Part shown: positions 9,814 to 10,151 of the stretch, piece by piece
Numbering within the stretch: position 1 is the first letter of the stretch
Layout of the letters: the number at the start of each line of letters is the position of its first letter
Translations under genes and position numbers: made by a program
Source: a virus
Taxonomy: Duplodnaviria; Heunggongvirae; Uroviricota; Caudoviricetes
Virus record (IMG/VR): IMGVR_UViG_2706794662_000011
DNA: 10,220 bases
Strand: one strand, 5' to 3'
The notes under the pieces: generated by a model
What the model was told of the DNA's origin: nothing
The model's input: the letters and a program-made list of their open reading frames with translations, nothing else
Databases searched by the model: none

Positions 9814-9984
9814 ATGAGCGCAAAAATCAAATACGGCCTGTCAGCTGCTGTTCTGGCGCTGATTGCAAAATGGCATCTGAATCGATCGCAGTTTGGCATT
9901 CGAATCGATCATGATTTGGCATCCATCTCCGATCACAGTTTGGCATCACAATCGATCACGATTTGGCATACTTCCGATCATTGA
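9814..9984 (+). pseudogene. R: Truncated SAR-endolysin R: only the first 18 codons (MSAKIKYGLSAAVLALIA) look like endolysin; the frame then runs through a repeat array to a stop at 9982..9984
   Basis: The N-terminus matches the signal-anchor-release segment of pinholin-partner endolysins. From about 9868 the translation (KWHLNRSQFGIRIDHDLASISDHSLASQSITIWHTSDH) reflects DNA repeats, not an enzyme. No muramidase domain and no Rz/Rz1 follow. Confidence 0.5.
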
Positions 9985-9990
9985 TTGGAA
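9868..9990. repeat. Array of five tandem direct repeats, period 23-24 bp, consensus TTTGGCAT-N6-(A/C)(T/C)CGATCA-N3, each with one GATC; a sixth degenerate unit follows
   Basis: Units start at 9868, 9891, 9914, 9938 and 9961. They are contiguous with no spacers. The array starts exactly where endolysin similarity ends. Confidence 0.85.
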
Positions 9991-10028
9991 TTCGCCAGTC
10001 ACTCCGGGAATTAACTCTTTTCACCACA

Positions 10029-10060
10029 GTCTCCATTGCCGTGTTTAAACCAGTGGAGAC
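10029..10060. promoter_or_regulatory. Near-perfect inverted repeat gtctccattg-N12-cagtggagac, just upstream of a small basic ORF
   Basis: Read directly; 9 of 10 arm positions are complementary. The right arm overlaps the RBS GGAGA for the ATG at 10065. Confidence 0.35.
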
Positions 10061-10064
10061 GTCA

Positions 10065-10151
10065 ATGTCCAAAAAGAGAAAATCCAGGAGCACTATGGAA
10101 ACTTGTTTTAAGATCCTTCAGCTCAAGTTCGATAAGAAGCTGACTAACTGA
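10065..10151 (+). CDS. Candidate 28-aa basic peptide (MSKKRKSRSTMETCFKILQLKFDKKLTN); its stop codon is the first 3 nt of the right terminal repeat
   Basis: GGAGA lies 7 nt upstream of the ATG. Very short and unsupported by any match. The longer TTG-initiated version from 9963 starts inside the repeat array. Confidence 0.2.
   Translation: MSKKRKSRSTMETCFKILQLKFDKKLTN

Follow-up and report, generated by a model that had tools for sequence, protein, structure and literature searches.

Insertion sequences of the IS21 family end in multiple direct repeats with a 23-bp spacing, as described for IS5376 (PMC10122671). Each of the IS5376 repeats L1, L2, R1 and R2 contains two conserved segments about one DNA turn apart, with which the transposase, IstA, makes contact through its HTH-1 and HTH-2 domains; integration needs two complete repeats, and the 23-bp spacing favours a supercoiled wrap of the DNA around an IstA tetramer (PMC10122671). 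IstA has been likened to MuA and TnsB (PMC10122671), the transposases that bind several subterminal repeats at the ends of phage Mu and Tn7, respectively. Here we compare with these systems a locus in which an array of direct repeats interrupts the lysis genes of a prophage.

The DNA analysed (hereafter, the window) is a stretch of 10,220 nucleotides from a virus of the class Caudoviricetes (IMG/VR record IMGVR_UViG_2706794662_000011). Near its right end, the beginning of an endolysin gene is followed by tandem repeats, each with a GATC site. An earlier note on this DNA had proposed that the repeats are one end of an unrecognised mobile or replicative element inserted in the lysis cassette. 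The first part of the proposal was borne out, since the 285 bp that follow the insertion junction are identical to the insertion sequence ISSso4; by this match the array is identified as the ordinary left terminal region of an IS21-family element. The element is not unrecognised: ISSso4 is named in ISfinder and mentioned in 14 open-access papers, and PGAP assigns the name in records of E. coli and Shigella. Element and array are thus already known, and the feature is not new. We consider it nearly certain that the locus as a whole is explained by the left end of ISSso4 lying in codon 17 of the endolysin gene of a lambdoid prophage and later cut at an IS600. Coordinates of the features are collected in Table 1.

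Table 1. Features of the window, with positions, strand and basis of assignment or remarks.
Feature	Positions	Strand	Basis or remarks
Second, inverted IS600 copy, same end	1–72	+	exact reverse complement of 10149–10220
Intact gene for a class II holin of the phage 21 S-type	9224–9439	+	Pfam Phage_holin_2_1, E = 2.3e-32
ydfR-like gene, between holin and endolysin genes	9444–9758	+	Pfam DUF1327, E = 5.1e-39; annotated 'YdfR family protein'
SAR-type endolysin gene, 5′ remnant	9814–9863	+	50 nt (16 codons + 2 nt); alignment to intact allele
Predicted left copy of target-site duplication, CTGAT (or GCTGAT from 9858)	9859–9863		duplications at two complete copies
ISSso4 left-end remnant, nt 1–285 of 2,638	9864–10148	+	285/285 bp identical to complete copy L001:3502–3786
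Five direct 22–24-bp units L1–L5, (T/A)TGGCAT-N5–7-CGATC	9864–9979	+	putative IstA-binding sites
Degenerate sixth unit ATTGATTGGAATTCGCCAGTCAC, without GATC	9980–10002	+	repeat search
Hairpin, 10-bp arms	10029–10060	+	3′ arm holds GGAG, 6 nt before upstream istA ATG
istA 5′ end	10065–10148	+	28 codons from ATG 10065, or 18 from PGAP-annotated ATG 10095
IS600 (IS3 family), terminal 72 bp	10149–10220	–	tip TGAGGTG; transposase genes on minus strand beyond window

The genes upstream of the array belong to a prophage lysis cassette. The holin is called as a 71-aa protein in loci L004–L012, although a longer mechanical ORF begins at 9146, and in an intact allele of the cassette it is annotated as 'class II holin family protein'. 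The earlier note assumed that a pinholin works together with a SAR endolysin, and a holin of this phage 21 S-type is consistent with that. The ORF at 9814–9984 starts with MSAKIKYGLSAAVLALIA. An intact 177-aa lysozyme of E. coli Ecol_AZ155 (L003:3215–3748; Pfam Phage_lysozyme, E = 1.1e-24) begins with the same 18 residues, and tblastn with this protein matched residues 1–18 only. A SAR endolysin combines a signal-anchor-release segment with a lysozyme catalytic domain, which in the intact protein occupies residues 33–167; the window retains residues 1–18 alone. The holin-ydfR-endolysin region is present in 233 E. coli records (at least 80% query coverage; those listed are 99.9% identical). In the one record inspected, that of Ecol_AZ155, the lysozyme gene is uninterrupted and is followed by an Rz-type lysis gene.

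Alignment to the Ecol_AZ155 allele fixed the breakpoint. The two sequences are identical through 9866 and unrelated 3′ of this position, so that the intact endolysin does not continue as coding sequence through the repeats; the native sequence across the breakpoint reads ...GCGCTGATTGCTGCAGGC. The true junction is nevertheless placed at 9863/9864, within endolysin codon 17, because the tip of ISSso4, TGC, coincides with a native TGC. For the same reason endolysin residues 17 and 18 are preserved: the first bases of the insertion sequence happen to match the native ones. The observation that the ORF is cut after 18 codons therefore holds at the level of the protein, with the DNA breakpoint refined to codon 17. 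A search of the window, and of 10 kb downstream in nine related genomes (nine 20-kb loci), revealed neither a lysozyme catalytic domain nor Rz, in agreement with the lysis defect suspected earlier. Judged from these alignments, the endolysin gene is a pseudogene remnant. With the endolysin, Rz and terminase genes and those for the head all missing from this locus, the prophage is clearly defective.

A repeat search of the region downstream of the junction recovered five copies of a unit at spacings of 23, 24, 23 and 22 bp, and Tandem Repeats Finder reported a period-23 array at 9871–9969 and a period-47 array at 9883–9994. Each unit consists of TGGCAT, 5–7 variable bases and CGATC(A), with a period of 22–24 bp. 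The motif TGGCAT-N5–7-CGATC has five matches in 9871–9979 and a single further one in the window, at 8317; 0.04 matches are expected in the whole window, and six or more were seen in none of 200 shuffled sequences. GATC is found in each unit (at 9884, 9907, 9931, 9954 and 9976). The first unit, L1, is AAATGGCAT; it includes the terminal 5′-TG and belongs to the terminal inverted repeat. The array and its GATC sites were thus correctly described before; L1 has to be given as above and a degenerate sixth unit to be added.

The identity of the array was established by a megablast search with positions 9760–10220 of the window against 5,426 complete E. coli genomes. Matches were obtained in 4,363 records, the best of them 100% identical from 9863/9864 to 10148 and lying under the annotation 'istA: IS21-like element ISSso4 family transposase'. 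The element name used here is taken from the PGAP annotation 'IS21-like element ISSso4 family'. Recurrence of the 23-bp unit at other loci was confirmed: a single E. coli genome can have it at as many as 43 places, and both chromosomes and plasmids carry it.

A complete ISSso4 copy from E. coli PapRG-04-4 (L001) is 2,638 bp long (TGCAAAA...ACGCA, i.e. from TGCAAAATGGCAT... to ...GGAATACGCA). It encodes IstA of 511 aa (Pfam rve and Mu-transpos_C_2) and IstB of 251 aa (IstB_IS21, E = 5e-60) and is flanked by a 5-bp duplication, TTCCT. A second, independent copy from strain 181.1 (L002) has a 6-bp duplication, GCAGAT, and its identity to the window begins at the same base. The duplications at the two complete copies thus differ in length (5 and 6 bp); with the element start moved one T to the left they would measure 4 and 5 bp. 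The ends fit the 5′-TG...CA-3′ rule, with the left tip TGCAAAATGGCAT at window position 9864 and the right tip ...GGAATACGCA in the full copy. An element start further to the left was also considered, as some relatives of 95% identity seemed to align from 9834; it was rejected, since a three-way alignment gave the same first base, and the extension to 9834 was a chance or gapped alignment.

The remnant in the window and the full ISSso4 are alike in the tip TGCAAAATGGCAT, the five-unit array, the hairpin and the start of istA. Unlike the full element, the remnant comprises only nt 1–285 of 2,638, its istA is interrupted by IS600 after 18 or 28 codons depending on the start chosen, and istB and the right end are missing, so that it is incapable of moving by itself. 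An intact ISSso4 with an identical IstA is carried by S. sonnei plasmid CP109776.1. The right end of the complete element contains three inverted units, each with GATC. The earlier statement that the array is present at one end only is accordingly true of the window and not of the element: a single array is seen because the remnant is truncated and the right end is gone.

To place ISSso4 among its relatives, we surveyed ten elements with IstA identities of 37–47%, including ISEc12, ISAs29 and ISBmu3 and further elements of E. coli, Klebsiella, Aeromonas, Pseudomonas, Bradyrhizobium, Sinorhizobium and Rhizobium. All ten have arrays with a 23-bp period at both ends, with 3–5 units on the left and 2–4 on the right, and all ten have tips of the TGC(A/G) type. 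By this comparison, the five-unit array is typical for a subgroup with an IstA of ~510 aa. With IS5376 and IS21, ISSso4 shares 23-bp direct repeats, two half-sites per repeat that lie about one helical turn apart, a terminal CA and a 5-bp target duplication. The half-site sequences of ISSso4 and IS5376 are, however, unrelated, and ISSso4 has five units (plus one degenerate) on the left and three on the right compared to two per end in IS5376. IstA of ISSso4 is also longer than that of IS21 proper (511 vs 390 aa), the two being ~25% identical.

By analogy with IS5376, we infer that the units of ISSso4 are IstA-binding sites. [quoted passage not shown] The presence of rve and Mu-transpos_C_2 domains in IstA, together with the IS5376 analogy, argues for the suggestion of the earlier note that the repeats are multiple transposase-binding sites of the Tn7 or Mu kind. 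That suggestion was mechanistically apt because IstA is related to MuA and TnsB. Phage Mu and Tn7 have in common with ISSso4 several subterminal transposase-binding repeats (putative in ISSso4), a DDE transposase with DNA-binding domains in tandem at its N-terminus and a barrel of the Mu type at its C-terminus, and an AAA+ partner (IstB being compared with MuB and TnsC). ISSso4 differs from them in belonging to another family, in being far smaller and without target-selector proteins, and in having contiguous repeats of a fixed 23-bp period.

Downstream of the array, the 10-bp-arm inverted repeat, the small basic ORF and the terminal repeat reported earlier were all found; all three turned out to be parts of insertion sequences. 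The small basic ORF, MSKKRKSRSTMETCFKILQLKFDKKLTN (10065–10151), is not a separate gene but the start of istA interrupted by IS600: tblastn placed IstA residues 1–18 at 10095–10148 with 100% identity, and the stop codon of the ORF (10149–10151) is the TGA of the IS600 tip. The istA start annotated by PGAP, at 10095, is preceded by AGGAG. An in-frame upstream ATG at 10065, with GGAG before it, adds ten residues, MSKKRKSRST, and it is the upstream ATG that is the annotated istA start in relatives. IstA of IS21 is made in two forms, transposase and cointegrase, which the two in-frame istA starts recall.

The inverted repeat forms a hairpin just upstream of istA. Its arms (10029–10038 and 10051–10060) are 10 nt long and 90% complementary, with a predicted folding energy of –20.3 kcal/mol (z = –5.1). 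Hairpins with a purine-rich 3′ arm located 3–8 nt 5′ of the start codon are present in most of the ten relatives, with differing sequences. For the upstream start of istA, the hairpin would mask the Shine-Dalgarno sequence, and it may act by occluding the ribosome-binding site. IS10 and IS50 are known to sequester their translation signals against read-through transcription. No σ70 promoter was detected by a promoter scan of 9700–10220, and a search of the literature returned no description of a stem-loop at the istA ribosome-binding site for the ISSso4 subgroup. Two side points retain some value here: the occurrence of GATC in every putative IstA site, and the conserved hairpin upstream of istA in the subgroup with a ~510-aa IstA.

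Identity to ISSso4 ends at 10148, and IS600 sequence runs from 10149 to the end of the window. A search with 10140–10220 matched 2,893 E. coli records at a coverage of at least 80%, with 'IS3-like element IS600 family transposase' annotated in the records listed. In locus L009, the IS600 transposase genes orfA and orfB are called on the minus strand at 10379–11535, and in L006, L009 and L011 an IS3-family transposase gene continues into the opposite end of the window, 1–72. What had been taken for a terminal repeat is, therefore, a pair of inverted IS600 ends. The bases next to the two ends of IS600 are AAC and GCC; a target-site duplication is thus lacking, and this IS600 marks a deletion or recombination joint rather than a simple insertion.

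To the right of IS600 in L006, L009 and L011 lies IS21 proper, inverted and truncated in istB, and after it the tail genes Z, U, V, G, T, H, M and L. The istA and istB genes at this place in L009 were considered as the displaced remainder of ISSso4 and rejected: their IstA is 25% identical to that of ISSso4, there is no nucleotide match, and they are 100% identical to annotated IS21. Extension of the locus beyond the window thus revealed transposase genes, those of IS600 and IS21, while the displaced 3′ part of the endolysin gene is absent from the nine 20-kb loci. In genomes of the L004 type, which have the same chimeric ORF across the ISSso4-endolysin junction, a different sequence is found to the right of the same IS600; the differing right flanks point to rearrangements at this IS600. 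The inferred order of events would be as follows. ISSso4 would first have transposed into endolysin codon 17, and IS600 would later have come to rest at istA codon 18 or 28, counted from the annotated or the upstream start, respectively. An IS600-mediated deletion or recombination would then have removed the remainder of ISSso4, the 3′ part of the endolysin gene, Rz/Rz1 and the packaging and head genes.

Apart from its two masked runs, the window matches CP026802.1 (L009), the genome of S. sonnei ATCC 29930 (PMC9430107), at 100% identity. In this strain neither the remainder of ISSso4 and the 3′ part of the endolysin gene nor Rz and the head genes lie within 10 kb, and each of the nine 20-kb loci contains only nt 1–285 of ISSso4 and lysozyme residues 1–18. 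An assembly collection lists the exact chimeric 56-aa ORF in 196 blocks; for 75 of these, the longest contig with the ORF is over 1 Mb. The organism is established for two junction loci, and both are S. sonnei: L009 directly, and L008 (CP109775.1) via the adjacent accession of plasmid CP109776.1, which probably comes from the same strain. None of the 4,363 matching records among the complete E. coli genomes covers at least 80% of the query, i.e. includes the ISSso4-endolysin junction. In a one-genome-per-species collection, no match was obtained either to the exact left junction or to the predicted right junction (the right tip of ISSso4 followed by 4–7 nt and the continuation of the endolysin gene). 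The wide occurrence of the junction is one of clonal inheritance.

Other explanations of the array have to be weighed against an ISSso4 end. That the repeats are native to the lysis region of this phage lineage, with a functional endolysin encoded elsewhere in the cassette, might be suggested by the many genomes with the junction, but this frequency is put down to clonal inheritance in S. sonnei. The region occurs in 233 E. coli records, with the lysozyme and Rz genes whole in the one inspected; the junction is found in no complete E. coli genome, and no lysozyme domain lies within 10 kb in the nine junction-bearing loci, which leaves the idea practically no probability. We hold it just as improbable that the array is an iteron-type replication origin, a possibility raised in the earlier note, belonging to some plasmid-like or satellite element in the lysis cassette. 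Five direct repeats of 22–24 bp do have the size and spacing of iterons. Yet they form the tip of a 2,638-bp unit with TG...CA ends and target duplications, and the same units stand inverted at its other end. An iteron origin has repeats bound by a cognate Rep initiator that is encoded close by, together with a neighbouring AT-rich unwinding region or DnaA boxes; the full element encodes IstA and IstB only, and no Rep. The scattering of the unit over chromosomes and plasmids is the pattern of an insertion sequence.

The GATC sites deserve a fuller consideration, since the array could primarily be a Dam- and SeqA-sensitive device in which methylation controls transposase binding or expression and couples it to replication, as in IS10 and IS50. 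GATC is present in all five units at a spacing of 22–24 bp. In the complete ISSso4, 8 of 13 GATC sites fall within the two terminal arrays, which together make up ~190 bp. ISSso4 hosts are Dam-positive enterobacteria, and GATC likewise stands in each unit of two relatives from E. coli, ISEc12 and the pEC732 element. But the same holds for ISBmu3 of Burkholderia and a Bradyrhizobium relative, whose hosts are not known to have Dam. Conversely, ISAs29 and related elements of Aeromonas and Klebsiella carry GTGAACAC at the position equivalent to the GATC half-site. Because the Burkholderia and Bradyrhizobium units share GATC and ISAs29-type elements have GTGAACAC instead, GATC is most simply read as one variant of an IstA half-site (GTGATCA, GTGAACA or CGATCA) and not as an adaptation to Dam. 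In the Dam-regulated elements IS10, IS50 and IS903 one or two GATC sites lie in the promoter and the inner end, and their effect has been demonstrated. These elements resemble ISSso4 in having GATC inside end sequences bound by transposase (by analogy, in the case of ISSso4); they differ from it in the number of sites, which is 5 + 3 in ISSso4, and in that the ISSso4 motif is shared with relatives from hosts not known to have Dam. No report connecting IS21 with Dam or GATC was found in the open-access literature searched. Methylation would in any case modulate the function of an insertion-sequence end and not replace it. The view of the array as primarily a Dam/SeqA-sensitive device is thus unsupported, and we think it improbable. 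It is likewise doubtful, though conceivable, that in Dam-positive enterobacteria end recognition in ISSso4 and ISEc12 is methylation-sensitive, with SeqA or hemimethylation confining IS21-family transposition to the time right after replication, and that in addition the istA hairpin is a family-wide block on activation by read-through transcription.

The reading of the array as the left end of ISSso4 accounts for the locus as a textbook example of how a prophage in S. sonnei decays through nested insertion sequences: ISSso4 lies in the endolysin gene, IS600 lies in ISSso4, and a truncated IS21 adjoins IS600. For S. sonnei 53G, 12 insertion sequences are listed, all three elements among them, and the decay fits the insertion-sequence expansion and gene loss documented in Shigella (PMC7373316). 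The main value of the finding is the correct annotation of the locus; it also illustrates that a multi-site transposon end can be recognised by careful reading of the sequence alone.

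An inverted pair of IS600 copies bounds the window exactly, so that the window is the stretch between both copies. One IS600 terminus lies at either end, and the two are reverse complements of each other at 72 of 72 nucleotides. The flanks of the right-hand copy were inspected in S. sonnei ATCC 29930 (locus L009) and found to be unequal, AAC on one side versus GCC on the other, which marks this IS600 as the joint of a rearrangement rather than the product of simple insertion. The IS600 that cuts ISSso4 also truncates a second element beyond the right end of the window: a copy of IS21 proper whose insertion point is immediately 5′ of tail gene Z. 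A single IS600 in L009 is therefore flanked by two different IS21-family elements, the ISSso4 remnant and IS21 proper. At this locus, no packaging or head gene is present in the interval from the lysis module to the tail module.

Coordinates of features within and next to the window (window positions unless L009 is stated)
Feature	Position	Length	Details
IS600 terminus, left	1-72	72 nt	
Segment absent from some loci	1546-1795		
Masked N run 1	4877-5136	260 nt	L009 counterpart 292 bp
Masked N run 2	6079-6356	278 nt	L009 counterpart 245 bp
Extra IS3-family element in some loci	about 6685-6689		inserted at about 6689, upstream of SASA esterase gene
Esterase gene	7220-9073	617 aa	upstream of holin; DUF1737, SASA (sialate O-acetylesterase) domain, DUF6645
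Hairpin before istA	10029-10060		
Upstream istA start	10065		GGAG
Downstream istA start	10095		AGGAG
IS600 terminus, right	10149-10220	72 nt	
IS21 proper	L009:11600-13420, right of window		inverted; istB truncated by right-hand IS600

Among the loci sharing the chimeric istA/IS600 ORF, L004, L005, L007, L008, L010 and L012 lack one segment of the window and carry an extra IS3-family insertion sequence. Both differences are strain-to-strain insertion-sequence variation of one prophage. The product of the gene downstream of the extra element, annotated as "SASA family carbohydrate esterase", resembles esterases of the NanS-p type, which are found in Stx-like and lambdoid prophages. The 5′ portion of an N6/N4 DNA methyltransferase gene falls within the first masked run. 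A Met/Arg/Arg tRNA cluster coincides in part with the second run, which overlaps its tRNA-Arg genes. Judging by the lengths of their L009 counterparts, the masks are not length-preserving.

Inverted copies of the repeat unit, from one to several, follow the left-end direct-repeat array in several relatives (ISEc12, ISAs29, ISBmu3 and the pEC732 element; loci L013, L015, L016, L017, L018 and L022, region upstream of istA). No obvious equivalent was detected after the left-end array of ISSso4.

The istA gene of ISSso4 has two in-frame start codons 30 nt apart, each associated with a Shine-Dalgarno-like sequence. PGAP selects the downstream codon for ISSso4 versus the upstream-equivalent codon for the relatives. 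The IstA protein of IS21 has two forms, transposase and cointegrase, which the double start of ISSso4 recalls.

The ISSso4 hairpin carries a Shine-Dalgarno-like purine run in its 3′ arm. A purine-run hairpin located 3–8 nt upstream of the istA start is present in ISSso4 and in most of the ten relatives (L013–L022; IstA identity 37–47%). No description of a hairpin occluding the istA ribosome-binding site was found in the literature searched. The hairpins of ISSso4 and the relatives differ in sequence, and their recurrence suggests that occlusion of the ribosome-binding site by a hairpin upstream of istA is conserved.
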